Part shown: in pieces, positions 897 to 61,024 of the stretch
How positions within the stretch are numbered: position 1 is the stretch's first letter
Layout of the letters: each line of letters starts with the position of its first letter
DNA from: Bacteroidota bacterium
Lineage (GTDB): Bacteria > Bacteroidota > Bacteroidia > Chitinophagales > Chitinophagaceae
NCBI GenBank assembly: GCA_040386335.1
Contig: JAZKFT010000063.1
Location: 1,351-65,350 of the forward strand
DNA length: 64,000 bases
Reading direction: 5' to 3'
The notes under the pieces: generated by a model
Told to the model about the DNA's origin: nothing
Database searches by the model: none
What the model saw: only the letters and a program-made list of their open reading frames with translations
Program-made: the position numbers and the translations under genes

Positions 897-2093
897 CTAC
901 TGCTTCATAAACCCAATCCGTTCTGAGGTATTGGTCCCCTCCAGGCGGAGGTAGTAATTTCCGGCTGGCAGTTGGGCAACATTTACATTAAAAAGATTGT
1001 TTCCCTGGGTAAATAAGTAGCGGCCTGTTTGTACCTGTTTTCCATTCGCAGCAATAATCGTATACTGAACCGTTTCCTGCTTCTCCGCGTTTACAGAAAG
1101 CGTAGCGATATCTTTTACAGGGTTAGGATATAAGGTTATTACTGCTCCTGTTTTACTAATATTAACGGTAGCTATTGGTGAGTATTTATACAAACCGTCT
1201 TTATCTACCATCTTCAGCCGGTAATACAACAGTTTTACGCCAAGGCTGGTAATATTCCTGTCGGTAAATTGATAGTTAATAGCGCTGTTGGAATTACCCG
1301 CTGCCGCTACGGTTCCAATGCTGCTGAACACACGGCTATCTGTGCTTCTTTCTACAGAAAACTGTTGGGTGTTTTGTTCAGATGCAGTGGTCCATTCAAG
1401 GCTGGCATCCTCTGACCGGCGCACAGCTTTAAATGAACTAAGGGTTAAAGGAAGCCCTGCATCGTGAGTAAAACGGGTAATGGCAAAGTTGCCTTGAGTA
1501 GTGGTCGAAGTGCCTGAATAGTTACCGACCCAGCAGGCGCTGAAATTCGTTCCATAGCCTGTACCACTGGTCGTGATTGCTTCTACTGACACAGAAGTTC
1601 CTGTAAAACCAGTATGCCTGATCTCTACCAGCAGGTGACCGCCATTGTACGCATAGCCATCTGTAAATCCAATAACGGCGCCAAAATTATTAGGCGCCGG
1701 ATCGGGAGGAAATGAGCCCGCAGTGATCGTCAGTGCACCCGACCGAACCCTTGTTTGTGTGCCCACTATATTGTTTGCAAAGGTTAGACTACGCTGGGCA
1801 GGTGCAACACTTTCACTTAAATAAATATCATAATTGGTATAGGTAACATCGCTGTCTGGCCATGCTACTGTTGCAGATGCTAGACGCCCGAATGTTATTC
1901 CCTTTAGTGTTTGCCCCACAAGTGGTGTCAGCTGATTGGCATTGATCAATAACTGGTAAGTACGTTGTGTATTGGCCAGCGGCCCCAAAAACGAGCCGGT
2001 GGTCGTATACGAAACCGGAACTACATGCGTTTGCGAATGTGCCTGAATACAAAAAGCAAATGGCAATAGCAACAGGGTAAAAAATGGTTTCAT
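897..2093 (-). CDS. Secreted protein with T9SS (Por) C-terminal sorting domain
   Basis: A signal peptide starts at the Met at 2093 (MKPFFTLLLLPFAFCIQAHSQ). The C-terminal ~80 aa (ITLYPNPVKDIATLSV...LPAGNYYLRLEGTNTSERIGFMKQ) fit the T9SS CTD pattern. The ORF-track start at 2231 is a non-signal extension. Confidence 0.7.
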   Translation of the reverse strand: MKPFFTLLLLPFAFCIQAHSQTHVVPVSYTTTGSFLGPLANTQRTYQLLINANQLTPLVGQTLKGITFGRLASATVAWPDSDVTYTNYDIYLSESVAPAQRSLTFANNIVGTQTRVRSGALTITAGSFPPDPAPNNFGAVIGFTDGYAYNGGHLLVEIRHTGFTGTSVSVEAITTSGTGYGTNFSACWVGNYSGTSTTTQGNFAITRFTHDAGLPLTLSSFKAVRRSEDASLEWTTASEQNTQQFSVERSTDSRVFSSIGTVAAAGNSNSAINYQFTDRNITSLGVKLLYYRLKMVDKDGLYKYSPIATVNISKTGAVITLYPNPVKDIATLSVNAEKQETVQYTIIAANGKQVQTGRYLFTQGNNLFNVNVAQLPAGNYYLRLEGTNTSERIGFMKQ

Positions 2094-2256
2094 AAACAGG
2101 TAGTTTTTATGAATGGTTGGCTTAAAGATAAGCAGACCTGCTGATGTTTGAAACAACATAGCGCCGGAATAACGGTGTTTTACCTTCGGCCTACTGGTCA
2201 CAGACGTTTGTTGCTGCAAAAAAAAGGGCACGGAACATCCAGGGCCATATCATCAT

Positions 2257-48058: not shown

Positions 48059-49222
48059 ATGAAAACATGTTGCTTTACTTTAATTGTTCTTCTTTTTTCT
48101 GTGCTGCTACAGGCACAGCATGTAGGTGTAAACACCAGCGAACCCCAAGCGTCTCTAGATGTAAATGGTGCATTGGCTCTAAGAGCCGCTGCCAACATCC
48201 AGGAGTTAAACCAGCCTGTTTCATTGCTCGACCTCAGCAACCGATCATATGTACGGTTTTTTGTGAACAACGGAAACGGTAATCTGCAAAGGAACATAAA
48301 GCTCAGTGCTGGCGTTCCCGGGCAGATCAGCACCGTCGAATTTACGGGTGCCGGTAACGGTACGCTCATCAACGGGAGTCGGCATGCCGGTGGTGGCAAA
48401 GTGATCCTGGCCGGCGACGTGCTGTTTCAAAACAAAACAATGGTGCTGTCCCTGGTGTTTGTCAACAATAACTGGAGGGAATTGTACAGAACTGAGAACC
48501 TGCCCAATGAAACGGATACGATAAGCGTGACTTACAATATTCCCGGAACCTATTTATTTACAGTGCCGCCCGGCGTGCAACAAATAAGAGTAACCGTGAA
48601 TGGCGCAGGTGGCTGGGGGGGCGGCAGTTTTCCTCCCACCACCGGAAGCGGTGGGCGTGGGGGAAAACTGATTTGCCTCATTAATACTACAGAAGGACAG
48701 CAGCTGGAAGTTGGTATTGGCGCAGGTGGTGGCGTAAATCAAAAAGGAAAGATCACTTATATAAAATCAGGCACTACCTACCTGCTTTTGGCTGGCGCAG
48801 GTGGGAACGGATCTAAAAACGGCGGAGTGGGCGGAGCCGGCGGGTCCGTGGGTGGCAATGGGCTAATCGGCCAGAATTCAATGGGCACAGGCGGTGGTGG
48901 GGCTACCGTGAATGCCGGCGGGGCAGGCGGTATTTCGGGTGGTGCCGGTGCCGGGCAGGCGGGCATAGCACTTACGGGCGGCACCTTGTTTACGTTTAAC
49001 CAGGGTGAAGGTTTTGGTGGGGATGGATGGTTTGGTGGCGGTTCTTCAGGAGCATATACATCTGGAAGCGGCAGCAACCCATGGGCCTCCGGCGGCGGTG
49101 GTGGGGGAAGCAATTACCAGCATTCAACGGTAACCAGTTTACTTAATAACAGCCTGGGTAATGAGGGTGGCTTAGGGGCCGCAAGTGGGGGACACGGCAA
49201 TGTAAAAATTGAATGGTATTGA
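48059..49222 (+). CDS. Exported glycine-rich-domain protein with fibre-type N-terminal module
   Basis: ATG at 48059. Leader ...VLLQAQ, then HVGVNTSEPQASLDVNG. YLFTVPPGVQQIRVTVNGAGGWGGG...GGRGGKL...IGAGGG and further GGxGG runs to the C-terminus. Confidence 0.7.
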   Translation: MKTCCFTLIVLLFSVLLQAQHVGVNTSEPQASLDVNGALALRAAANIQELNQPVSLLDLSNRSYVRFFVNNGNGNLQRNIKLSAGVPGQISTVEFTGAGNGTLINGSRHAGGGKVILAGDVLFQNKTMVLSLVFVNNNWRELYRTENLPNETDTISVTYNIPGTYLFTVPPGVQQIRVTVNGAGGWGGGSFPPTTGSGGRGGKLICLINTTEGQQLEVGIGAGGGVNQKGKITYIKSGTTYLLLAGAGGNGSKNGGVGGAGGSVGGNGLIGQNSMGTGGGGATVNAGGAGGISGGAGAGQAGIALTGGTLFTFNQGEGFGGDGWFGGGSSGAYTSGSGSNPWASGGGGGGSNYQHSTVTSLLNNSLGNEGGLGAASGGHGNVKIEWY

Positions 49223-49658: not shown

Positions 49659-52037
49659 ATGACTAAGATATGCTGCTTGTGGTTTGTTTTTTTTAACGCT
49701 GTTGTTTTTGCACAGAGCAAAGACAAGAATGAGACGCATACTGTAGTTAGAAACAAGGAGTTGAAAAATGCCACGATTCAAACTACTCCTACAATTTCTG
49801 AATTAATCCTGTTATTGCAAAAACCGGAAACCGTTTCAAAAAAAGTTGACATACTTTATGAGATTGCTGAAGGTTATGCTAACTATCTCAAAATTGATTC
49901 TGCCCTTTTTTATGCCCAAAAAATAAAAGCTGTTTCAGACAGTGCAGGTTACGAAGCTGGTCTTGCTAAATATTATCTCGCCAGGGGTTCTGCTTTATAT
50001 TACCGCAACAAGGGTGTTGAGGTAACACAAAATCTACAGCAGGCAATCAGTTTATTCACACGATACAACAACAACCTTTTTCTTGGCATAAGTTATCACC
50101 AGTTGGCAAGACATACAGCCAACACGAGAGATTATTCAGGAGCGGAAAAATTTTATCGTAAGGCTGTGTCGCTCCTGGTTGGTTCCGGAGATGTTAGCAA
50201 GCTGCAATTTGCTGTCTATAATCTCGGACGAAATTTTTATCTCAGTTTGGAGTTAGATAGTGCTGCTTATTATTTGTCGTGGGGTTTGCGGCTGGCTGAA
50301 GGTATACAGAGTAAACCAAAAATATTTACCATAGCCGCTATGCTTGGTGCGGTGTATTTTACTGCCGGAAATAATAACGAGGCCGAACGGATATTGAGTT
50401 ATGCTTTGGCTAATCAGCCTTCCTTCATCGACAAAGTGCATCTGCGTGGTGTGTTGGCTAATTATGCAGAAGTGCTAACCTCACAAGATAAATATGAACA
50501 AGCCGCAAAAGCAATAACGGACTACGCGAAAATCAATGTTTCGTTTGGAGATGTTTGGGGCCGCATGACAGAGATGAAATTAAAAGGGGCCCTGCTATAT
50601 CGCCAGGGTCATTATGACGCTGCGCTTCGTTATTTACAGGATGGGTATAAACTGAATCCCGGTGAGCATTTATTTGCACATGATTTAATGAATCTTGCTT
50701 CTTATCTCGGAAAAACAGAATTAAAAACCGGGCATGCAGACAGTGCGATTATTCATTTTCATCTCGCAAAAAAGCTGGCAACGGAATCGAATTTTATAGC
50801 CGGAATACTTGAAGGGAACATGCTGTTGGCGGAGGCTTTCCGGCAAAACAATAAAATGGATTCTGCTTACCACTATTTCCATTACTACGCTCATCTTAAA
50901 GATTCTATACTGACTTTTAAAAAAGAAAGAACAGTGATGGAGTTGAGTGCGAAATACAATGCTGAAAAAAAGGAACAACAGATAAAAAATCTGCAAACAG
51001 AAAAGCAGGTGTATGATTTTCAGCTGATGTTGAAAAACAAAACCATTGAGCAGCAAGAGCTGGTTGGACTAAAAAATGCGCAGCAGCTAACACTGCTGAC
51101 ACAACAATCGGAAATAAGCAGGCTGCAGGCATCCGAGAAAAGCCTGGCATTAGAAAACCGTGAAAAAGAGTTTTTAAAGAAACAGAAAGAACTGGAGTTG
51201 TTGCAAAAAGAAAAACAATTACAATCGGCATTGGCAGCAAAGCAGGCACAGCAAAAAAATCTTCTTTTTTTTATTATTGGTGCTGTTTTGTTGTTTGTAT
51301 TATATGGTGCACACCGTTATAAGCAGAATAAGAAATTAACTGAACAACTATCACAATCTCTTATAGATTTAAAACTGGCGCAGGAACAAATAATAAAATC
51401 GGAGAAAGAAAAAGAATCAGAAAATGTCAGGGTAAGCATTAGTCGCGATATACATGATGAAGTGGGTGCTACACTGAGCGGGGTAGCCTTATTTAGTGAA
51501 ATAGCAAAGCAAAAAGTATTGCAGCATAACCAGCAGGATGCACTTGAATATCTTGGCCATATTTCAACCAATTCAAAAGAAATGGTTGAAAAAATCAGTG
51601 ACATTGTTTGGTCTATTAATCCTGAGAATGACAGCTTTGAACGTATCACCGAAAAGCTGAAAGCTTACACCTTAAACTTATGCGCCGGCAGAGGCATTCG
51701 TTTGAGCTTTAACGTAGATGAAAACATAAACAATTTGGCTCCTGCCATGCAGGTACGAAGAAATATTTACCTGTTCTGTAAGGAGGCTATCAACAATGCT
51801 ATAAAATATTCAGGCTGCCGTCATTTTTCGTTTTCATTGCAGTGGGGTACCGGGCATAGTTTGCTGGAGATAAAAGATGATGGCACCGGCTTTAATGAAG
51901 ACACGGTGATAAAAGGCAATGGCCTGAAAAATATGCAGGCAAGAGCTAACGACTTGAAAGCAGACTTTGAATTGAAAACGGGGCCGGGTAAAGGAACAAA
52001 CATAAAGCTGCGTTTTAATTTTCACCCAAACGGGTGA
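49659..52037 (+). CDS. TPR-repeat sensor histidine kinase (signal peptide, about 450-aa TPR region, coiled coil, TM helix, HisKA_3 + HATPase_c)
   Basis: Leader ending VFAQ. Long helical repeat region. Q/K/E-rich coiled coil. TM helix LLFFIIGAVLLFVLYGA. H-box SRDIHDEVGATLSGV. G-box DDGTGF...GNGLKNM. Confidence 0.85.
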   Translation: MTKICCLWFVFFNAVVFAQSKDKNETHTVVRNKELKNATIQTTPTISELILLLQKPETVSKKVDILYEIAEGYANYLKIDSALFYAQKIKAVSDSAGYEAGLAKYYLARGSALYYRNKGVEVTQNLQQAISLFTRYNNNLFLGISYHQLARHTANTRDYSGAEKFYRKAVSLLVGSGDVSKLQFAVYNLGRNFYLSLELDSAAYYLSWGLRLAEGIQSKPKIFTIAAMLGAVYFTAGNNNEAERILSYALANQPSFIDKVHLRGVLANYAEVLTSQDKYEQAAKAITDYAKINVSFGDVWGRMTEMKLKGALLYRQGHYDAALRYLQDGYKLNPGEHLFAHDLMNLASYLGKTELKTGHADSAIIHFHLAKKLATESNFIAGILEGNMLLAEAFRQNNKMDSAYHYFHYYAHLKDSILTFKKERTVMELSAKYNAEKKEQQIKNLQTEKQVYDFQLMLKNKTIEQQELVGLKNAQQLTLLTQQSEISRLQASEKSLALENREKEFLKKQKELELLQKEKQLQSALAAKQAQQKNLLFFIIGAVLLFVLYGAHRYKQNKKLTEQLSQSLIDLKLAQEQIIKSEKEKESENVRVSISRDIHDEVGATLSGVALFSEIAKQKVLQHNQQDALEYLGHISTNSKEMVEKISDIVWSINPENDSFERITEKLKAYTLNLCAGRGIRLSFNVDENINNLAPAMQVRRNIYLFCKEAINNAIKYSGCRHFSFSLQWGTGHSLLEIKDDGTGFNEDTVIKGNGLKNMQARANDLKADFELKTGPGKGTNIKLRFNFHPNG

Positions 52038-52080: not shown

Positions 52081-52722
52081 ATGGCAATAAGGGTAGCAAT
52101 ATTTGAAGACAATAAACTAATGCGAAATGGCTTTGAAGCCATCTGCAATGGTACCGAAGGACTTATGTGTAGCGGTGCCTTTGCTGATAGTTTTGACCTT
52201 GACTTCAAAATAAAAAAGGCCGCTCCACAGGTTATTCTTATGGATATTGAAATGCCAGGCACTGATGGTATAGCAGCTACACGCCATGTAATAAAAAAAT
52301 GGCCGGAGATAAAAATCCTGATACAAACGGTATTTGAAGATGATGATAAGATTTTTAAAGCTATTTGTGCAGGTGCATCGGGCTATATACTAAAGTCAAC
52401 TTCGCCTGCAAGGTTAGTTGAATCTATCATAGAAGTTTACAACGGTGGCTCGCCTATGAGTCCATACATAGCCAGCCGTGTATTAAAACTTTTTCAGCAA
52501 TTTGCACCCACAGAACAGCAAAACGAAGATTACAGCCTAAGCAGCCGTGAAAAAGAAATTCTTTCACTGATGGTGGAAGGAATCAATTTGCAGTTGATAG
52601 CCGATAAAATTTTCATTTCGTATGAAACGGTGCGCAGTCACGTCAAGCGCATCTACAAAAAGCTTCATGTAGCTTCTGCGTCAGAGGCAGTAGCAAAGGC
52701 AATCAGGCAGCGCATCATCTGA
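52081..52722 (+). CDS. NarL/FixJ-type response regulator (REC + LuxR HTH)
   Basis: VAIFEDNKL, ILMDIEMPGTDG, REC pattern. LSSREKEILSLMVEGINLQLIADKIFISYETVRSHVKRIY. Confidence 0.9.
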   Translation: MAIRVAIFEDNKLMRNGFEAICNGTEGLMCSGAFADSFDLDFKIKKAAPQVILMDIEMPGTDGIAATRHVIKKWPEIKILIQTVFEDDDKIFKAICAGASGYILKSTSPARLVESIIEVYNGGSPMSPYIASRVLKLFQQFAPTEQQNEDYSLSSREKEILSLMVEGINLQLIADKIFISYETVRSHVKRIYKKLHVASASEAVAKAIRQRII

Positions 52723-52837: not shown

Positions 52838-54040
52838 ATGCAATTTTTAAAACCAGGTTTTATGAGACAGCTATTTTATGTTCCCGCAGTATTTCTCTTT
52901 GCTGTGGCATTAACGGCAGGTGTATTATCTACATCGGCAAAAAAGAATTATCGTTTTTTCAGCGAACGAAATATTACGACAGCCGAATACCAGTTTGCCC
53001 TTTCCATATTTGCAAGAGAGTTTCCGCCAAAAGACATGATCACACTTACCAATGGAACGGGCTTTAGTAACAGGCCGTATGTAAGACCTTCTATCAATGG
53101 TGGTGTGCAAATGAATCTTGGCGATATATACAGCGATCCCCTTTCTACGCCAAGCAGCAGGGAGCTTTTTGCACATGAGCTAACACATGCCTGGCAGTTA
53201 GAACACTATGGATATGCATGGTACATTAAGCAGGCAATCGGAAACCAGGTGGTAGATGGTGCACCATATGATTATGTATGCGATGCTGCTAAAACGCTGG
53301 GCGACTATAATGCAGAACAGCAGGGTGAAATAGTAAAAGACTACTATAAAAAAAATGTATGTGCCACCGCTGTTGCGCGCCCATTGAGAAGTGCTACATG
53401 GAAATTATTGACAGGAAGCGATGCAGTGGATATGGCTGTTAACAACGATGGCACATACTATATGGTGAATACTGCAGGCATCATTTACAACTATAAAACA
53501 ACAGATAATGACTGGAATAAAATGCAGGGTAGTGCAGGAAAAGCAATCGCCGCCAATGCAGGAAAAGTCTGCATGGTTAATTCGGTTGGAAATATTTACG
53601 AACTAGCTGGAACGGCCTGGAAGAAAATGCCTGGTAGCTCAGGAAAAGATGTTGGTATTGATGCTGATGGAACAATATGGATGGTGAATACTGCCGGTAA
53701 AATTTATAAATACTCAGGTACTAAATGGATGCAGATGCCAGGGAGCGACGCCGCCAGGATAGCTGCAGGTGGAGGACAAGTTTGGATGGTAAATACTGTC
53801 GGTAAAATATATCGATACAATGGCACTAAATGGACCCAAATGTCTGGTAGTGCAGGATTAGATATTGCTGTGGCCAACGATGGTAAAGTTTTTATGACGA
53901 ATAACGTTGGCAAGATTTACCAATGGGGCGGCAATGCGTGGATGCAGCTTGATGGCAATGATGGAAGAAAAGTATCAGCAAATAATAACAAGCTGGTTCT
54001 TGTAAACAAAAAAGGAAGAATGTATTTCAGAACATACTGA
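52838..54040 (+). CDS. Exported HExxH-motif domain fused to a six-repeat tectonin-like beta-propeller
   Basis: Hydrophobic leader (alternative ATG at 52862). HELTH at 53174-53188 (LFAHELTHAWQLEHYG). Six ~35-aa repeats of the type G.IY.Y.GT.W.QMPGS....IA....G.VWMVN (53393-54037). Confidence 0.7.
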   Translation: MQFLKPGFMRQLFYVPAVFLFAVALTAGVLSTSAKKNYRFFSERNITTAEYQFALSIFAREFPPKDMITLTNGTGFSNRPYVRPSINGGVQMNLGDIYSDPLSTPSSRELFAHELTHAWQLEHYGYAWYIKQAIGNQVVDGAPYDYVCDAAKTLGDYNAEQQGEIVKDYYKKNVCATAVARPLRSATWKLLTGSDAVDMAVNNDGTYYMVNTAGIIYNYKTTDNDWNKMQGSAGKAIAANAGKVCMVNSVGNIYELAGTAWKKMPGSSGKDVGIDADGTIWMVNTAGKIYKYSGTKWMQMPGSDAARIAAGGGQVWMVNTVGKIYRYNGTKWTQMSGSAGLDIAVANDGKVFMTNNVGKIYQWGGNAWMQLDGNDGRKVSANNNKLVLVNKKGRMYFRTY

Positions 54041-54083: not shown

Positions 54084-55553
54084 ATGAAAACGATATCTTT
54101 TTATGGTAGCTTTTTAGCCTTGTTCTTTGTTTTGATTGTTCGTTCAGCAATTTGCTTTTCTCAAAACGTAGGCATTGGCACCAACATACCGGTATTTAAG
54201 TTAGACGTAAAAAACGGCAGCATCAATACCGATTCAGTTTATCGCATTAGCAGCAAAACAGTGTTGTCAATAAAAGGAACGCATAATACTTTCATTGGCA
54301 TTGGCGCCGACAGTTCTATTACGACCGGAAGTAATAATACTGCTTCGGGCTACCAGGCACTTTATTTCAATACAACCGGGGAAATTAATACAGCTATTGG
54401 CACCACTGCACTATACAACAACATGACTGGTTATAGAAACGTTGCTATTGGCAGCAGTGCACTTTATACTAACACAAGCGGTTATTATAATACGGCTGTT
54501 GGTGCACTGGCTCTTGCAAATAGTACAGCTTCGGAAAATACAGCGGTTGGTTATTATACGCTGGCTTTTAATACAACAGGGCGGCAAAATACTGCAACCG
54601 GGGCTTCAGCACTTAGAACCAATACTATCGGGGATTATAATACAGCAATTGGTTACGCTGCACTATATACTAACACAACCGGTGACAGGAATACAGCTAC
54701 CGGCAATGAAGCACTTCGTAGTAACATCACTGGCTTTAGTAATACAGCGAATGGCCATATGGCTTTGCATTCAAATACAATGGGCCCGAATAATACGGCT
54801 ACGGGCAGCGGTGCACTTGATGATAATACGACTGGTAGCGATAATACCGCTACAGGTCTTGGAGCTCTTGGCGATAATTCAACTGGATATGACAATACTG
54901 CTACCGGAGTTCTTGCACTCTGGCATAATTCAACCGGGCATGCTAATGCGGCTTACGGGAACCAGGCACTCTCTGCCAACACAACCGGGCAATTCAATAC
55001 AGCCATTGGGGTTGAGGCTGATGTTACTTCAGGGAATTTAATACTTGCGACTGCGATTGGCTACAACGCAAGAGTGGATGCCAACTACAAAGTACGTATT
55101 GGCAGCACAGGTGTAACATCCATTGGCGGGCAAGTAGGTTGGAGTAATTTTTCCGATGGCCGTTATAAACAAAATATACAGGAAAATGTACCTGGAATTT
55201 CATTCATCAATAAGCTTCGCCCAGTAACATACACAGTGGACATAAAAAGTCTTGACGAGCGTTATTATAAATTAAAACCTGGCATTGCTACTGCTGCAGG
55301 TAATTCATATTGTCATACTGGTTTTATTGCACAGGAAGTAGAACGCAGTGCATTAGAACTTGGCTTCAGCTTCAGTGGAGTAGATAAACCCCAACAACCC
55401 AATGGACTCTACGGTTTACGTTATGCAGAATTTGTAGTGCCACTGGTGAAAGCAGTACAAGAGCTGTCAAAAGAAAACAACGAGTTAAAAAATCAAAACA
55501 AGGAATTGCTTGAGCGTATTGTGTCAATTGAAAAAATCTTAAAAACTAAATAG
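54084..55553 (+). CDS. Tail-fibre-like exported protein, paralogue 1: N-module + 13 x 17-residue repeats + S74 intramolecular-chaperone domain
   Basis: Leader ...ICFSQ, then NVGIGTNIPVFKLDVKNG. Repeats follow NTA.G..AL..NT.G... The C-terminus has SDGRYKQNI...LRPVTYTV...HTGFIAQEVE...YGLRYAEFVVPLVKAVQEL plus a coiled coil. Confidence 0.8.
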   Translation: MKTISFYGSFLALFFVLIVRSAICFSQNVGIGTNIPVFKLDVKNGSINTDSVYRISSKTVLSIKGTHNTFIGIGADSSITTGSNNTASGYQALYFNTTGEINTAIGTTALYNNMTGYRNVAIGSSALYTNTSGYYNTAVGALALANSTASENTAVGYYTLAFNTTGRQNTATGASALRTNTIGDYNTAIGYAALYTNTTGDRNTATGNEALRSNITGFSNTANGHMALHSNTMGPNNTATGSGALDDNTTGSDNTATGLGALGDNSTGYDNTATGVLALWHNSTGHANAAYGNQALSANTTGQFNTAIGVEADVTSGNLILATAIGYNARVDANYKVRIGSTGVTSIGGQVGWSNFSDGRYKQNIQENVPGISFINKLRPVTYTVDIKSLDERYYKLKPGIATAAGNSYCHTGFIAQEVERSALELGFSFSGVDKPQQPNGLYGLRYAEFVVPLVKAVQELSKENNELKNQNKELLERIVSIEKILKTK

Positions 55554-55560
55554 GGCCGAT

Positions 55561-56799
55561 ATGAAAAACATATTCCTGTTGCTGCTATCCATTCTGTGTT
55601 TTCCTGTTTCGGTATTCACGCAAAACATAGGCATTGGCACTAACATACCTGCATTTAAGTTAGACGTAAAAAACGGCAGCATCAATACCGATTCAGTTTA
55701 TCGCATTAGCAGCAAAACAGTGTTGTCAATAAAAGGAACGCATAATACTTTCATTGGCATTGGCGCCGACAGTTCTATTACGACCGGAAGTAATAATACT
55801 GCTTCGGGCTACCAGGCACTTTATTTCAATACAACCGGGGAAATTAATACAGCTATTGGCACCACTGCACTATACAACAACACGAGTGGTTATAGAAACG
55901 TTGCCATTGGCAGCAGCGCACTTTATACGAACACAGCCGGTTATTATAATACGGCTGTCGGTGCACTGGCTCTTGCAAATAGTACAGCTACGGAGAATAC
56001 GGCTGTTGGTTATTATACACTTGCTTTTAATACAACAGGGCGGCAAAATACTGCAAGTGGTGCTTTAGCACTTACAAGTAATACCATTGGGGATTATAAT
56101 ACAGCTAATGGTTACTCTGCACTATATTCTAATACTTCAAGCAATGGAAATGTAGCAATTGGTTACCATGCACTTTACAGCGCAACCAGCGGATTCAATA
56201 CTGCTATTGGAGCTTACACGATGGATGGCAATATAAATGGTTCGCTTAATACTGCGATAGGTTGTTATGCAGATGTGAGTCCGTACAATGGCAACATAAG
56301 CAATTCTATTGTCATTGGTAATAGTGCAATTGTTGATGGAAGCAACAAGGTAAGGATAGGCAACGGCATCATTACTTCCATCGGAGGACAAGTAGGCTGG
56401 AGCACATTTTCTGATGCCAGGTATAAGCAAAATATAGAGGAAGATGTGCCAGGCATTTTATTCATCAATAAACTTCGTCCCGTAACATACACGGTAGATA
56501 GCAAAAGCCTTGCTGAAAATTATTACAAATTAAAACCCGGCATTGCTTCTTCCTCTAACAATTCATATCGCCATACTGGTTTTATTGCACAGGAAGTAGA
56601 ACGCAGTGCATTAGAACTTGGCTTCAGCTTCAGTGGAGTAGATAAACCCCAACAACCCAATGGACTCTACGGTTTACGTTATGCAGAATTTGTAGTGCCA
56701 CTGGTGAAAGCAGTACAAGAGCTGTCAAAAGAAAATGACGAATTAAAAAATAAAATCAAGGAATTGCTTGAGCGTATTGTAGCAATAGAAAAAATGTAA
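55561..56799 (+). CDS. Tail-fibre-like exported protein, paralogue 2
   Basis: Same architecture as paralogue 1. 230 nt of the 5-prime part and 164 nt of the 3-prime part are identical to paralogue 1. SDARYK motif. Confidence 0.8.
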   Translation: MKNIFLLLLSILCFPVSVFTQNIGIGTNIPAFKLDVKNGSINTDSVYRISSKTVLSIKGTHNTFIGIGADSSITTGSNNTASGYQALYFNTTGEINTAIGTTALYNNTSGYRNVAIGSSALYTNTAGYYNTAVGALALANSTATENTAVGYYTLAFNTTGRQNTASGALALTSNTIGDYNTANGYSALYSNTSSNGNVAIGYHALYSATSGFNTAIGAYTMDGNINGSLNTAIGCYADVSPYNGNISNSIVIGNSAIVDGSNKVRIGNGIITSIGGQVGWSTFSDARYKQNIEEDVPGILFINKLRPVTYTVDSKSLAENYYKLKPGIASSSNNSYRHTGFIAQEVERSALELGFSFSGVDKPQQPNGLYGLRYAEFVVPLVKAVQELSKENDELKNKIKELLERIVAIEKM

Positions 56800-56818
56800 A
56801 AAACTAAATAGGGCTGAT

Positions 56819-58261
56819 ATGAAAAACATATTCCTGTTGGTGCTATCCATTCTGTGTTTTACTGTTTCGGTATTCACGCAAAACATAGGTATCGGTACAG
56901 CCACACCTGCATTTAAGTTAGACGTAAAAAACGGCAGCATTAATACTGATTCTGTTTATCGGATTGGTGGTAAAAGGGTATTGTCAACAAATCTTCAAAA
57001 TACATTTGTTGGTATTGGCATAGCCAGTTTATCAACGGGAGATTATAATACGGCCGTTGGAAACGAAGCGCTTTATTCCAATACAACCGGAGAGCGGAAC
57101 ACGGCTTTGGGCTTATGGGCATTATACAGCAATACGTCAGGAGATTACAATACCGGCGTTGGAAAATCTGCACTTCATGTAAATTCATACGGTGACGGTA
57201 ATACGGCTTATGGCTATGAAGCCCTTTATACCAATAACGCTTCATTTAACACGGCAGTTGGTTATCACGCATTGCTCTTTAATAGTGGGGGCAATGAAAA
57301 TACAGCCAATGGGTACGAAGCCCTGAATCGCAACAGCACCGGTTATTTTAATACCGCGATTGGGTCACAGTCATTGCTTTTCAATACAACAGGAGCGCGA
57401 AATAGCGCTACCGGCACTAAGGCTCTTTATTCCAATTCCCTGGGTCATTACAATACTGCCAATGGCTATGGAGCACTTTATGGAAATACCCAGGGAACTT
57501 ACAATACTGCCCATGGCTACCAGGCACTTTATTCAAACGGCTTTGGTGATTACAACACGGCATGCGGCACCGAGACACTTTATTCCAACACGGCCGACAG
57601 AAATACAGCGCTGGGTTATAACACACTTTATGCGAATACGATAGGTTTTCAAAATACTGGTGTTGGTTTTTATACGCTGGTTAATAATATTTCAGGCAAT
57701 AACAATACCACTATCGGAAGTTTTAGTGATGTAAGTTCTGGTGATCTGATTAACGCTACTGCTCTTGGTTACTCTACAAAGGTTGATGCCAGCAATAAAG
57801 TGCGGATAGGTAATGCTTCTGTGACTTCCATCGGCGGCCAGGTAGGATGGACAAATTTTTCGGATGGACGCTACAAACAAAATATACGGGAAGACGTGCC
57901 AGGGATTTTATTCATCAACAAACTTCGCCCCGTAACCTACACAGTAGATAACAAAAGCCTTGATGAAAGTTATTACAAATTAAAACCCGGCATTGCTGCT
58001 TCCACGAGCAATCCATATCGCCATACTGGTTTTATTGCACAGGAAGTAGAACGCAGCGCAACAGAATTGGGCTTCATTTTCAGCGGAGTAGATAAACCCC
58101 AACAACCCAATGGACTCTACGGATTACGTTATGCAGAATTTGTAGTGCCACTGGTAAAATCAGTACAAGAGCTGTCAAAAGAAAACGAAGAATTAAAAAA
58201 TCAAAACAAGGAATTGCTTGAGCGTATTGTGGCAATAGAAAAAATCTTAAAAACTAAATAG
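56819..58261 (+). CDS. Tail-fibre-like exported protein, paralogue 3
   Basis: Same architecture. SDGRYK motif. The 5-prime part is near-identical to paralogue 4. Confidence 0.8.
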   Translation: MKNIFLLVLSILCFTVSVFTQNIGIGTATPAFKLDVKNGSINTDSVYRIGGKRVLSTNLQNTFVGIGIASLSTGDYNTAVGNEALYSNTTGERNTALGLWALYSNTSGDYNTGVGKSALHVNSYGDGNTAYGYEALYTNNASFNTAVGYHALLFNSGGNENTANGYEALNRNSTGYFNTAIGSQSLLFNTTGARNSATGTKALYSNSLGHYNTANGYGALYGNTQGTYNTAHGYQALYSNGFGDYNTACGTETLYSNTADRNTALGYNTLYANTIGFQNTGVGFYTLVNNISGNNNTTIGSFSDVSSGDLINATALGYSTKVDASNKVRIGNASVTSIGGQVGWTNFSDGRYKQNIREDVPGILFINKLRPVTYTVDNKSLDESYYKLKPGIAASTSNPYRHTGFIAQEVERSATELGFIFSGVDKPQQPNGLYGLRYAEFVVPLVKSVQELSKENEELKNQNKELLERIVAIEKILKTK

Positions 58262-58268
58262 GGCTGAT

Positions 58269-59570
58269 ATGAAAAGCATATTCCTTTTGTTGCTATCCAT
58301 TCTTTGTTTTACTGTTTCTGTATTCACGCAAAACATAGGTATCGGCATAGCCACACCTGCATTTAAGTTAGACGTAAAAAACGGCAGCATTAATACTGAT
58401 TCTGTTTATCGGATTGGTGGTAAAAGGGTATTGTCAACAAATCTTCAAAATACATTTGTTGGTATTGGCATAGCCAGTTTAGCAACGGGAGATTATAATA
58501 CGGCCGTTGGAAACGAAGCGCTTTATTCCAATACTACGGGGGAGCGGAATACTGCTTTGGGTCTATGGGCATTATACAGTAATGCAACAGGCAACTACAA
58601 CACGGGCGTTGGAAAATCTGCACTTCATTTAAATTTAGACGGTTCCGGTAATACGGCTCAGGGATACGAAGCACTTTATTATAATACCGCTTCATTTAAC
58701 ACGGCGGTGGGTTATCATGCATTGCTACAAAACACCAGCGGCCCCTTAAATACAGCGAATGGCTATGCGGCTTTAGCTCGCAATACTACCGGGAGCAGTA
58801 ACACAGCTCAGGGCACACAGGCATTATTTTATAATACATCTGGTTCTTATAATACCGCTATGGGCTACCAGGCTCTTTATTCAAACTCGTATGGCCGGTA
58901 CAATACTGCCCAGGGGTATAGAGCCCTTTATGGAAATTTGACAGGTTTTGATAATACAGCCATTGGGGTAGAAGCACTTTATTCAAACACTTCCGGTGAG
59001 CACAACACTGCCATAGGGCACCATAGTGATGTTACCTCTGGCAGTTTTCTCAACGCTACTGTTATCGGATATGCTGCCGAGGTTGATGCCAGCAATAAAG
59101 TGCGGATCGGCAATACGGTGGTTACTTCTATTGGGGGCCAGGTAGGATGGACAAATTTTTCGGATAGCCGCTACAAACTAAATATACGGGAAGACGTGCC
59201 AGGCCTTTCGTTTGTTACCGCGCTTCGTCCTGTAACCTACACAGTAGATACAAAAAGCCTTGATGAGAACTATTACAAATTAAAACCCGGAATTGCTGCT
59301 TCTACTAACACTTCTTACCGGCATACAGGTTTTATTGCCCAGGAAGTAGAACGTAGCGCAGCAGCATTGAACTACAGCTTTAGCGGGGTAGATAAGCCGC
59401 AACAACCCGATGGACTCTATGGATTGCGTTATGCAGAATTTGTAGTGCCATTAGTAAAAGCTGTGCAGGAACAACAGCAGCAAGTCAACCATCTGCAGGT
59501 AGAAATTGAGTTGCTGAAAGAACAAAACAAATTACTCATCCAACAACTTAATAAAAAGAACAGGGAATGA
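58269..59570 (+). CDS. Tail-fibre-like exported protein, paralogue 4
   Basis: Same architecture. SDSRYK motif. The C-terminal coiled coil is diverged. The stop overlaps the next start (ATGA). Confidence 0.8.
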   Translation: MKSIFLLLLSILCFTVSVFTQNIGIGIATPAFKLDVKNGSINTDSVYRIGGKRVLSTNLQNTFVGIGIASLATGDYNTAVGNEALYSNTTGERNTALGLWALYSNATGNYNTGVGKSALHLNLDGSGNTAQGYEALYYNTASFNTAVGYHALLQNTSGPLNTANGYAALARNTTGSSNTAQGTQALFYNTSGSYNTAMGYQALYSNSYGRYNTAQGYRALYGNLTGFDNTAIGVEALYSNTSGEHNTAIGHHSDVTSGSFLNATVIGYAAEVDASNKVRIGNTVVTSIGGQVGWTNFSDSRYKLNIREDVPGLSFVTALRPVTYTVDTKSLDENYYKLKPGIAASTNTSYRHTGFIAQEVERSAAALNYSFSGVDKPQQPDGLYGLRYAEFVVPLVKAVQEQQQQVNHLQVEIELLKEQNKLLIQQLNKKNRE

Positions 59571-61024
59571 AAAAGATCACAACACTCGGTTGTAGCCTAT
59601 TTGTATTCACGCATGTTTTATACGCGCAAAATGTAGGCATCGGCACAACCAGTCCGAATGAAAAACTTCATGTGGCCGGAAATTTAAAAGCCGATACCAT
59701 AAAACCTGCTGCCATAAAACTGCCACTTAACGCAGGCGACGGTAAAATATTAACCAGCGATGCGGCGGGTAATGCTAGTTGGAAACTTAATAGTGCAGCG
59801 GCAGCAGGTAATGTTGGTTATGGTGTTTGGGGCGACTGTGCTACTAATGGCAATATCAGTGATTATCAACCAGTGGCCGATGCTAATGGTGAGTTTCCCG
59901 ATAAATTTGGGAACAGCGTCGCCATTGCCGGCGGCTATGCTATTATTGGAACTCCCGGAGATGCTGTAGGAGCAAATACGGGTCAGGGTTCTGTCAGCAT
60001 ATATCAAAACGATGGAAGCGGCTGGATATTGATGCAGAAACTTACAGATGCAACCGGTGCAGCTGATGATAATTTTGGTATTAGCGTAAACATTTCCGGC
60101 AATTATGTGATAGTGGGAGCGCCTAATGATGACATAGGTCCAAATGTTAACCAGGGCTCAGCCAGTATTTATAAATATGTTGGGGCTAGTTGGGTGCTGA
60201 TGCAGAAAATCACGGATGCCGGGGGTGCCGCCAACGATAACTTCGGAATAAGTGTAGCCATTTCGGGTAACTATGCTTTAGCAGGATCCCGTAATGATGA
60301 TATGGGTGCAAACAGCAATCAGGGCTCGGCCAGTTTTTATCAATACGATGGCGCAAATTGGATATTGACACAGAAATCAGCGGAGCCTGGTGGTGCGGCA
60401 AATGATAATTACGGTAATAGTGTTTCTATGTCGGGCGGCTTTGCCGTAATAGGTGTGCCCGGTGATGGTGTAACAGTGTCAGGCATTAATCATGGTTCAG
60501 CTATTATCTATCAATACAATGGTACTACCGGCTGGAACCTTACGCAGAAGCTAACAACTAACACAGGCGCAAACAGCGAATTTTTTGGTACAAGTGTATC
60601 TATATCCGGGAACTATTTTATTGGAGGAGCCCTTCGCGCTGATGTTGGTGCAAATACCGACCAGGGCTCGTGCTGTATTTTTCAGTTTAATGGCAGTAAT
60701 TGGATGCTAATGCAGAAAATATATGATCACTATGGCGAAGCAAGTGATGCATTTGGATCTGCTGTCTCAATTTCCGGAGATTATGCTATTGTTGGAACTC
60801 CTTTTACCTATGTTACTAATAAGATCAATCATGGCTCTGCAACTATTTATCAGCGCATAGGAATGGGCTGGCAAAAGCTGCAATTCATTATTGATCCCGG
60901 TGGTCTTGAGCATAATTTTACCGGTAACGCTGTTGCTGTTGACGGAATCACAAAACAGTTTATTATTGGTGCTTATGGCTATATGAATGTTATCGGCAAA
61001 GTGCTTTTTGGGAAAGTAAATTAA
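59567..61024 (+). CDS. Exported seven-blade FG-GAP-like propeller protein with fibre-type N-terminal module
   Basis: Leader ...VLYAQ, then NVGIGTTSPNEKLHVAGN. Seven repeats of FG.SV.ISG.Y..VGAP.DD.G.N.GQGSA.IY...G..W...QK. Confidence 0.75.
   Translation: MKKITTLGCSLFVFTHVLYAQNVGIGTTSPNEKLHVAGNLKADTIKPAAIKLPLNAGDGKILTSDAAGNASWKLNSAAAAGNVGYGVWGDCATNGNISDYQPVADANGEFPDKFGNSVAIAGGYAIIGTPGDAVGANTGQGSVSIYQNDGSGWILMQKLTDATGAADDNFGISVNISGNYVIVGAPNDDIGPNVNQGSASIYKYVGASWVLMQKITDAGGAANDNFGISVAISGNYALAGSRNDDMGANSNQGSASFYQYDGANWILTQKSAEPGGAANDNYGNSVSMSGGFAVIGVPGDGVTVSGINHGSAIIYQYNGTTGWNLTQKLTTNTGANSEFFGTSVSISGNYFIGGALRADVGANTDQGSCCIFQFNGSNWMLMQKIYDHYGEASDAFGSAVSISGDYAIVGTPFTYVTNKINHGSATIYQRIGMGWQKLQFIIDPGGLEHNFTGNAVAVDGITKQFIIGAYGYMNVIGKVLFGKVN

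Follow-up and report, generated by a model that had tools for sequence, protein, structure and literature searches.

Peptidase S74 domains, also known as intramolecular chaperone auto-processing (ICA) domains, have been described in the literature from phages, giant viruses, polinton-like viruses, the transcription factor MyRF, and the fibres of extracellular contractile injection systems (eCIS) (PMC12923769 for the last of these). In endoNF (3gw6), phage GA-1 (3gud), phage S16 gp37 (6f45), and T5 pb1, the ICA domain lies C-terminal to a trimeric beta-structure and acts in the cytoplasm on virion proteins. MyRF (7dc3) is a cellular, non-viral precedent: a eukaryotic membrane-bound transcription factor without a fibre body, in which cleavage frees the trimer from its tether and releases it as a DNA-binding trimer. 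Here, we propose that four tandem genes (F1 to F4) in a 64-kb stretch of a Bacteroidota genome (contig JAZKFT010000063.1; hereafter the window) encode cellular, non-virion fibres that would be exported by Sec, assemble as trimers, shed a chaperone fragment, and have an adhesin- or lectin-like role, a reading to which we assign a probability of about 0.65. The ICA domains of F1 to F4 share with those of the phage proteins the family, the dyad spacing, the terminal helix, and the position behind a (here predicted) trimeric beta-structure; they differ in that they would act after Sec export. Our literature searches turned up no publication on S74 fibres that bacteria export, and while the genes and their domain combination are already in databases under automatic names, their biology appears undescribed.

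The S74/ICA assignment and an intact Ser-Lys dyad are supported in all four proteins. F1 to F4 are tandem open reading frames (ORFs) on the plus strand at positions 54084-59570 of the window, separated by 7, 19, and 7 nt (Table 1), as an earlier note made from the DNA letters had described. By alignment, F2 to F4 are 62-79% identical to F1 and the C-terminal ~130 amino acids (aa) are near-invariant, including every C-terminal motif which that note had read as common to the four. Its identification of an S74 domain also holds in Pfam, where PF13884 (Peptidase_S74) is matched at 31.1, 35.7, 34.2, and 33.9 bits (E 1e-8 to 3e-7); since the gathering score is 22, this is no chance event. The S-x4-K dyad, within S-D-x-R-Y-K, is present in all four proteins at the Ser codons that the note had given (Table 1). 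Beyond the window, PF13884 is matched in 127 of 128 relatives, and within the dyad motif, conservation of Ser, Asp, and Lys reaches at least 90% in this 128-sequence set; the three are invariant in a 100-sequence alignment, in which the Arg is at least 90% conserved.

Comparison with solved structures points to the same domain. Searches of the PDB with a single protein or with a full-length 31-sequence profile gave nothing useful. Solved ICA and adhesin structures came within reach only when the profile was built from the last 300 aa of 128 family members. This profile matched the distal subunit of the phage S16 long tail fibre (6f45; 4.9e-9) and the MyRF ICA (7dc3; 2.8e-8), with the SDxRxK and GFIAQEVE motifs in register with both; SD[GAS]RYK aligns with SDRRIK in S16 gp37 and with ADLRAK in the 7dc3 MyRF chain, which has Ala at the Ser column. 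A monomer model of F2 aa 213-412, built on a deeper alignment (predicted local distance difference test, pLDDT, 86.9; predicted template modelling score, pTM, 0.70), has the MyRF ICA as its top PDB match (7dc3; TM 0.67, root-mean-square deviation 3.9 Å, prob 1.0) and also matches the endoNF chaperone (3gw6; prob 0.99) and the chaperone of the phage GA-1 neck appendage (3gud; prob 0.99). Against predicted viral structures, it gave 147 matches at E<=1e-3, the best at 1.6e-12. This model supersedes an earlier full-length model of F2, which had a pLDDT of 70 and weak fold E-values. The “heptad coiled coil” that the earlier note placed after the S74 domain is indeed a helix, but not a separate element: model residues 162-199 (pLDDT 93-98) align with the helix of the MyRF ICA and form the C-terminal helix of the S74/ICA domain itself. 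The C-terminal fragment was likewise foreseen at the right scale, although its predicted 129-136 aa and 14.6-15.5 kDa are slightly above the 13-15 kDa first proposed. Cutting at the conserved Ser would leave mature chains with computed masses of 26.9-34.2 kDa.

In phages, the resemblance to the window proteins goes beyond the S74 domain to the whole architecture. Both the repeats and the S74 domain are matched by PHROG families of tail spike and virion structural proteins (phrog_4636 at 6e-70), and 29 records from cultured phages align with at least 80% of F2 (28-37% identity), among them Bacillus phage SPO1 gp2.52, Pelagibacter phage HTVC112P, Roseobacter phage CRP-1, and Prochlorococcus phages P-SSM2 and P-SSM5. 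Proteins of phrog_4636 and phrog_23837 have the same whole architecture of repeat body, S74 domain, and terminal helix, covering 80-96% of F2, but they have no signal peptide, begin with a virion-attachment N-terminus, and are set among virion genes, whereas the window fibres begin with a signal peptide and a short conserved module and belong to a chromosomal tandem array. The best viral matches, at 40-44% identity, are S74 proteins on three IMG/VR contigs of 154-439 kb (L081-L083) and have collagen-like N-termini, for example GPRGFHGRDGKNGLNGK; these contigs, of putative viral status, are possibly jumbo phages or giant viruses.

Signal peptides were called with our own heuristic (basic start, hydrophobic core, cleavage context), applied alike to viral and bacterial ORFs. 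All four window proteins have one, in agreement with the earlier note: a basic start, a core with a Kyte-Doolittle value of 3.25-3.45 over 10 residues, and then CFS↓QN in F1 or VFT↓QN in F2 to F4 (arrow, predicted cut). By this heuristic each has the small residue at -1, the Gln at +1, and the absence of a lipobox Cys expected of a Sec and signal peptidase I substrate; in Bacteroidetes, substrates of signal peptidase I are marked by this Gln at +1, a regularity called the Q-rule (PMC5837995, PMC10653852). The contrast that the note drew with phage fibres extends to the family, as a signal peptide was called in 0 of 81 S74 ORFs on viral contigs, several of which are near-duplicates, and in at least 103 of 129 bacterial ORFs, where the small residue is always followed by Gln. 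About 10 further bacterial ORFs have a visible signal peptide narrowly under the threshold, and most of the others are fragments or have misplaced starts. Given this contrast, the bacterial genes are, as far as sequence can tell, a distinct, exported form of a phage-type fibre. We also considered lipoprotein anchoring and rejected it: the Cys in the signal peptide is outside a lipobox context and is missing in many homologues.

The close match, over the full length, to families of phage tail spikes and fibres would favour another reading, in which F1 to F4 are the receptor-binding fibres of a nearby phage-derived particle (prophage, tailocin, or eCIS) and are assembled in the cytoplasm. S74 folds do occur on eCIS fibres of Bacteroidota (PMC12923769), and the Tectonin protein encoded upstream of F1 has weak eCIS-related matches, all sub-threshold: its N-terminal part weakly resembles the metallopeptidase-like eCIS_core/DUF4157 domain (E 0.027), and its Tectonin part scores 28.6 bits against CIS12_fam, for which the cut-off is 860. 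We nevertheless consider a particle very improbable. Signal peptides in four of four proteins are incompatible with cytoplasmic assembly, and none of the viral homologues has one. The window, as the earlier note had stated of virion genes, contains no capsid, tail, baseplate, sheath, tailocin, or eCIS genes over the 54 kb upstream and the 4.4 kb downstream of the array; no conserved phage-like neighbour was found across 80 related loci; and the ~9 kb that remain of the contig are too short for a full contractile tail module.

The body of the exported fibres, between the N-terminal module and the S74 domain, consists of a 17-aa repeat, NTAxGxxALxxNTTGxx (copy numbers in Table 1), that is modelled as a beta-helix (pLDDT 80-93). 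The C-terminal family profile matches adhesin heads, namely Hep_Hag 3s6l (3.5e-5), CbpF 9u93 (2e-3) and 9gh4 (6e-3), and YadA 1p9h (0.02), and Foldseek on the repeat part of the model returned CbpF, SadA, BoaA, and YadA (prob 0.3-0.87). The heads of these trimeric autotransporter adhesins (YadA 1p9h, BoaA 3s6l, CbpF 9gh4/9u93, SadA 2yo3) have ‘NTAxG..A’ repeat cores, folded as a beta-roll or beta-helix, that are related to the repeats of the window fibres; from sequence profile and model we regard the relationship as probably real but remote. Could F1 to F4 then simply be trimeric autotransporter adhesins, the label that JGI annotation gives to many relatives? The repeat matches, together with a Pfam YadA_head match in 1 of 128 relatives (1.7e-16), speak for this, but we find it scarcely credible. 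The body repeats of the window proteins have no Pfam match, YadA_head included, even at E<=5, and they recur every 17 aa, whereas the matched adhesin-head repeats (3s6l alignment) have a 14-aa period. More decisively, trimeric autotransporter adhesins are surface proteins with a membrane anchor barrel, whereas the C-terminus of F1 to F4 is an S74 domain and no YadA-type anchor barrel was matched in them; lacking a membrane anchor, they are not autotransporters. The S74 domain stands where the adhesins have their anchor and is presumably the trimerisation device. We know of no classical trimeric autotransporters described in Bacteroidota.

The relatives fall into two subtypes. Tail lengths, counted from the catalytic Ser to the end of the chain, have a bimodal distribution (n=121), with 81 proteins below 190 aa and 40, about a third, of 220-290 aa, a tail of the length of a sorting domain. 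The long form carries a sorting domain of the type IX secretion system (T9SS; PF18962) after the coiled coil, matched by Pfam in 22 of 128 relatives, and in this it resembles other T9SS cargo of Bacteroidota. F1 to F4 are of the short, tag-less type, with 129-136 aa from Ser to end and no match to the T9SS sorting domain in any of the four. The subtypes keep apart within arrays: of 25 multi-copy arrays, 20 are all-short, 5 all-long, and none mixed, which rules out, for neighbours, the piggy-back export on an adjacent T9SS-tagged paralogue that we had considered.

These subtypes bear on whether the S74 domain cuts at all. It may only trimerise, the chain staying uncut or being cut conditionally, with the coiled coil kept in the mature fibre. 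In relatives that bear the sorting C-terminal domain (CTD), an early cut would leave the fibre without its export tag, a point in favour of delayed or regulated cleavage in at least that subtype; to judge from the order of the domains, cleavage there must be delayed past export, or the fragment must stay bound. For F1 to F4, however, a domain that only trimerises, or cuts only conditionally, is quite improbable, since the dyad residues are invariant in the 100 sequences and the motif is kept in both subtypes, a degree of conservation that is hard to explain without catalysis.

The fibres of the window, which have no T9SS tag, may end up in the periplasm, in vesicles, or on the surface. The exported trimers might stay in the periplasm or leave only inside outer-membrane vesicles, there binding, for example, envelope glycans or incoming phage. 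Consistent with this, F1 to F4 lack a T9SS sorting domain, a lipobox, and a barrel anchor; the short-tail form makes up two thirds of the relatives, and no array combines it with CTD-bearing copies. Vesicle proteins of Tannerella forsythia also include a ‘tail fiber domain-containing protein’ (PMC10682907), a putative member of the fibre family. We regard confinement to periplasm or vesicles as rather unlikely all the same, as repeats like those of adhesin heads and a variable tip are better suited to ligands outside the cell, and the CTD-bearing third of the family is clearly surface-destined. The N-terminal modules, moreover, are correlated with the tag, with short-to-long ratios, as raw counts that ignore kinship, of 36:0 for ‘AINTD..MLDV’, 16:0 for ‘FxYQAVVR’, 53:11 for ‘GIGT’, and 23:38 for ‘WxLxGN’. 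This correlation may point to a route of export or anchoring that depends on the N-terminus.

In the mechanism that we propose for F1 to F4, the precursor would leave the cytoplasm through Sec, and signal peptidase I would remove its signal peptide immediately ahead of the Gln, as predicted from the sequence and the Q-rule. Outside the cytoplasm, the S74/ICA domain would align three chains through its C-terminal helix and template the folding of the preceding beta-structure and the 17-aa-repeat shaft in the C-to-N direction. Self-cleavage at the conserved Ser, for which the Lys five residues further along would serve as base, would then free the 129-136 aa chaperone fragment and leave a stable trimer of 27-34 kDa subunits. 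Trimerisation, folding, and cleavage are here expected by homology to endoNF, GA-1, the phage S16 and T5 fibres, and MyRF, and the adhesin- or lectin-like role is suggested by the adhesin-head-like repeats and the variable tip.

Several points weigh against this proposal. Trimerisation, autocleavage, and localisation are all steps that we infer, and the signal-peptide calls rest on a heuristic. With a 17-aa in place of a 14-aa period and no Pfam match for the body repeats, the analogy with adhesins is remote. The neighbourhood was surveyed over the 64-kb window, and ~9 kb of the 72,893-bp source contig lies outside it. With neither a T9SS sorting domain nor a lipobox nor a beta-barrel anchor, F1 to F4 have no known route across the outer membrane, and in the tagged relatives the tag is downstream of the cleavage site, so that cleavage in the periplasm would strip it.

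Within the array, the paralogues are mosaics. At the DNA level, F1 and F2 are 97-100% identical over alignment columns 30-150 and 100% identical in part of the S74 domain; F3 and F4 are 93-99% identical over columns 0-90; and F2 and F3 are 96% identical in the signal-peptide segment and 90-93% at the 3' end. Identity is only 50-60% in the distal repeats, where whole repeats are inserted or deleted, and climbs again to ~70-100% across the S74 domain and C-terminal helix. This pattern of identity indicates recombination or gene conversion among the copies. The most variable part is thus the distal body beside the cleavage site, with the N-terminal module and the chaperone conserved, the same layout as in phage receptor-binding fibres, which have a constant attachment end, a variable tip, and a conserved chaperone. 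It suggests, by this likeness, four binding specificities on a common N-terminal ‘handle’, a module that is also found on the neighbouring FG-GAP and Gly-rich proteins. The junctions between the genes (55551-55563, 56812-56821, and 58259-58271) share TAGGGC[C/T]GATATG, a conservation from which the duplication unit appears to span stop, spacer, and start; in the 19-nt gap upstream of F3, a TAA and an extra stretch are followed by the same motif at the end of the gap. Scans of the window for promoters and terminators gave no more matches than in shuffled sequence.

Such fibres are widespread. A word-indexed search gave at least 7,949 significant relatives among the matches listed, and an exhaustive search of 50%-identity representatives gave 53,194 at E<=1e-3, 29,845 at <=1e-10, and 8,871 at <=1e-30. 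Species-representative genomes contain at least 575 loci, 80 of which, together with the window, make up the 81 loci whose neighbourhoods were compared. Nearly all of the 80 are labelled Bacteroidota (two have other labels), and they include Chitinophagales, Saprospiraceae, Flavobacterium (with the cultured F. fontis DSM 25660), Bacteroidales, and Lentimicrobiaceae. In 27 of the 81 loci, two to six S74 fibre genes occur within +-10 kb and almost always form a same-strand tandem, and the window array is thus typical.

Recurrent neighbours of the fibre genes in these loci are sensor kinases and regulators, T9SS-tagged proteins, and non-S74 proteins with the N-terminal modules of the fibres. The last group includes proteins in four loci (L048, L062, L073, and L075) with a fibre signal peptide and N-terminal module and a C-terminal ‘YYWSSTEYD...AW...F..G’ domain, which we take to resemble DUF1566 or the Fibrobacter paralogous domain; this points to secreted proteins in modular families with a common N-terminal handle. 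A small secreted protein of ~160-170 aa, absent from the window, directly adjoins a fibre gene in all eight loci that hold it (Table 1), and has a conserved N-terminal motif SSGG...W(S/T)(L/I)GE...TQGFQQP and a T9SS-type C-terminal domain. TPR-HisKA_3 kinases, often with a LuxR-type regulator, lie beside fibre arrays in L005, L020, L043, L051, L056, L071, and others. As a conserved partner, the sensor kinase/LuxR pair was rejected: although 28 of the 81 loci contain a similar kinase cluster, such kinases account for 5.5% of neighbouring ORFs and three occur in the 64-kb window, so that by a rough estimate their adjacency is about what chance predicts. The pair in the window may all the same regulate the fibres.

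The rest of the window is ordinary Bacteroidota chromosome, with a PhoD phosphatase, GH43, S9 peptidases, an amidase, a glucose/sorbosone dehydrogenase, and Y_Y_Y hybrid sensors. The array is flanked by a secreted Tectonin protein and a secreted FG-GAP_2 protein (Table 1). The latter has neither an S74 domain nor a T9SS sorting domain, and its mature N-terminus, QNVGIGTTSPNEKLHV, carries the fibre module; a second large FG-GAP protein, of 1528 aa, is encoded 21 kb upstream of the array. In all, six proteins of the locus (the four fibres, the FG-GAP_2 protein, and the Gly-rich protein) have the module Q[NH][IV]G[IV][GN]T..P...L.V at the mature N-terminus. The same motif is found internally and repeatedly in some viral fibre ORFs, which marks it as a general fibre element and nothing new. 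NCBI names F2 and F4 ‘MAG: tail fiber domain-containing protein [Bacteroidota bacterium]’, and the exact sequences of F1 and F3 had no match in the protein collection; public annotation may give these two other starts or leave them uncalled.

Table 1. Features of the fibre array, of its surroundings in the window, and of the small secreted protein in related loci. Coordinates are those of the window unless a locus is named; fragments are predicted.
Feature	Coordinates	Strand	Details
F1 fibre gene, 489 aa	54084..55553	+	Signal peptide aa 1-26
F1 N-terminal module	between signal peptide and repeats	+	QNVGIGTNIPVFKLDV
F1 repeats	aa 85-321	+	14 x 17 aa
F1 S74/ICA domain	55152..55550	+	From Ser357 (SDGRYK) to C-terminal helix; fragment 133 aa, 15.0 kDa
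F2 fibre gene, 412 aa	55561..56799	+	NCBI MES2778219.1; signal peptide aa 1-20; 10 repeats, aa 79-246
F2 S74/ICA domain	56410..56796	+	From Ser284 (SDARYK); fragment 129 aa, 14.6 kDa
F3 fibre gene, 480 aa	56819..58261	+	Signal peptide aa 1-20; 14 repeats, aa 77-312
F3 S74/ICA domain	57860..58258	+	From Ser348 (SDGRYK); fragment 133 aa, 15.2 kDa
F4 fibre gene, 433 aa	58269..59570	+	NCBI MES2778221.1; signal peptide aa 1-20; 11 repeats, aa 77-262
F4 S74/ICA domain	59160..59567	+	From Ser298 (SDSRYK); fragment 136 aa, 15.5 kDa
T9SS-tagged protein	897-2231		T9SS cargo elsewhere in the window
FG-GAP/TIG protein, 1528 aa	28192-32778	+	18 FG-GAP_3 repeats, TIG domains, weak TcdB toxin mid/N match
Gly-rich secreted protein	48059-49222	+	Mature N-terminus QHVGVNTSEPQASLDV resembles the fibre module; C-terminal part rich in glycine (Pfam Gly_rich_2 E 1.1e-4, below cut-off)
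TPR-HisKA_3 sensor kinase	49659-52037	+	Upstream of the array, same strand
LuxR-type response regulator	52081-52722	+	Upstream of the array, same strand
Secreted Tectonin protein	52838-54040	+	Lectin-like propeller; 43 nt upstream of F1; N-terminal part with HExxH (FAHELTHAWQ)
Secreted FG-GAP_2 protein	59567-61024	+	Beta-propeller; start overlaps F4 stop by 4 nt
Small secreted protein, L003	3940-4437
Small secreted protein, L027	5273-5767
Small secreted protein, L033	11217-11720
Small secreted protein, L039	829-1347
Small secreted protein, L042	3289-3807
Small secreted protein, L044	8758-9273
Small secreted protein, L055	6443-6928
Small secreted protein, L072	8339-8818

If our proposal for F1 to F4 is true, exported bacterial proteins would be a third context for the S74/ICA domain, beside virion fibres and MyRF, and one of considerable scale: tens of thousands of sequence clusters, with tandem arrays in Chitinophagales, Saprospiraceae, Flavobacteriales, and Bacteroidales. 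It would also pose two problems, namely how a self-cleaving domain upstream of a T9SS tag avoids premature cutting, and how the tag-less majority exits the periplasm, if at all. For genome annotation, a ‘tail fiber domain-containing protein’ in a Bacteroidota genome is no evidence of a prophage. At its most speculative, and in our view unlikely in its full extent, the idea extends to a phylum-wide Bacteroidota class of Sec-exported, self-cleaving trimeric fibres, in which the phage-type chaperone replaces the membrane anchor by which adhesins of other Gram-negative bacteria trimerise, the tag-less majority, this array included, takes an undescribed route to the cell surface or the medium that perhaps depends on the N-terminal module, and recombining tips serve in adhesion, cell recognition, or as decoys for phages with related fibres. 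Should the proposal hold for F1 to F4, Bacteroidota would gain an alternative way to build trimeric adhesin-like fibres.

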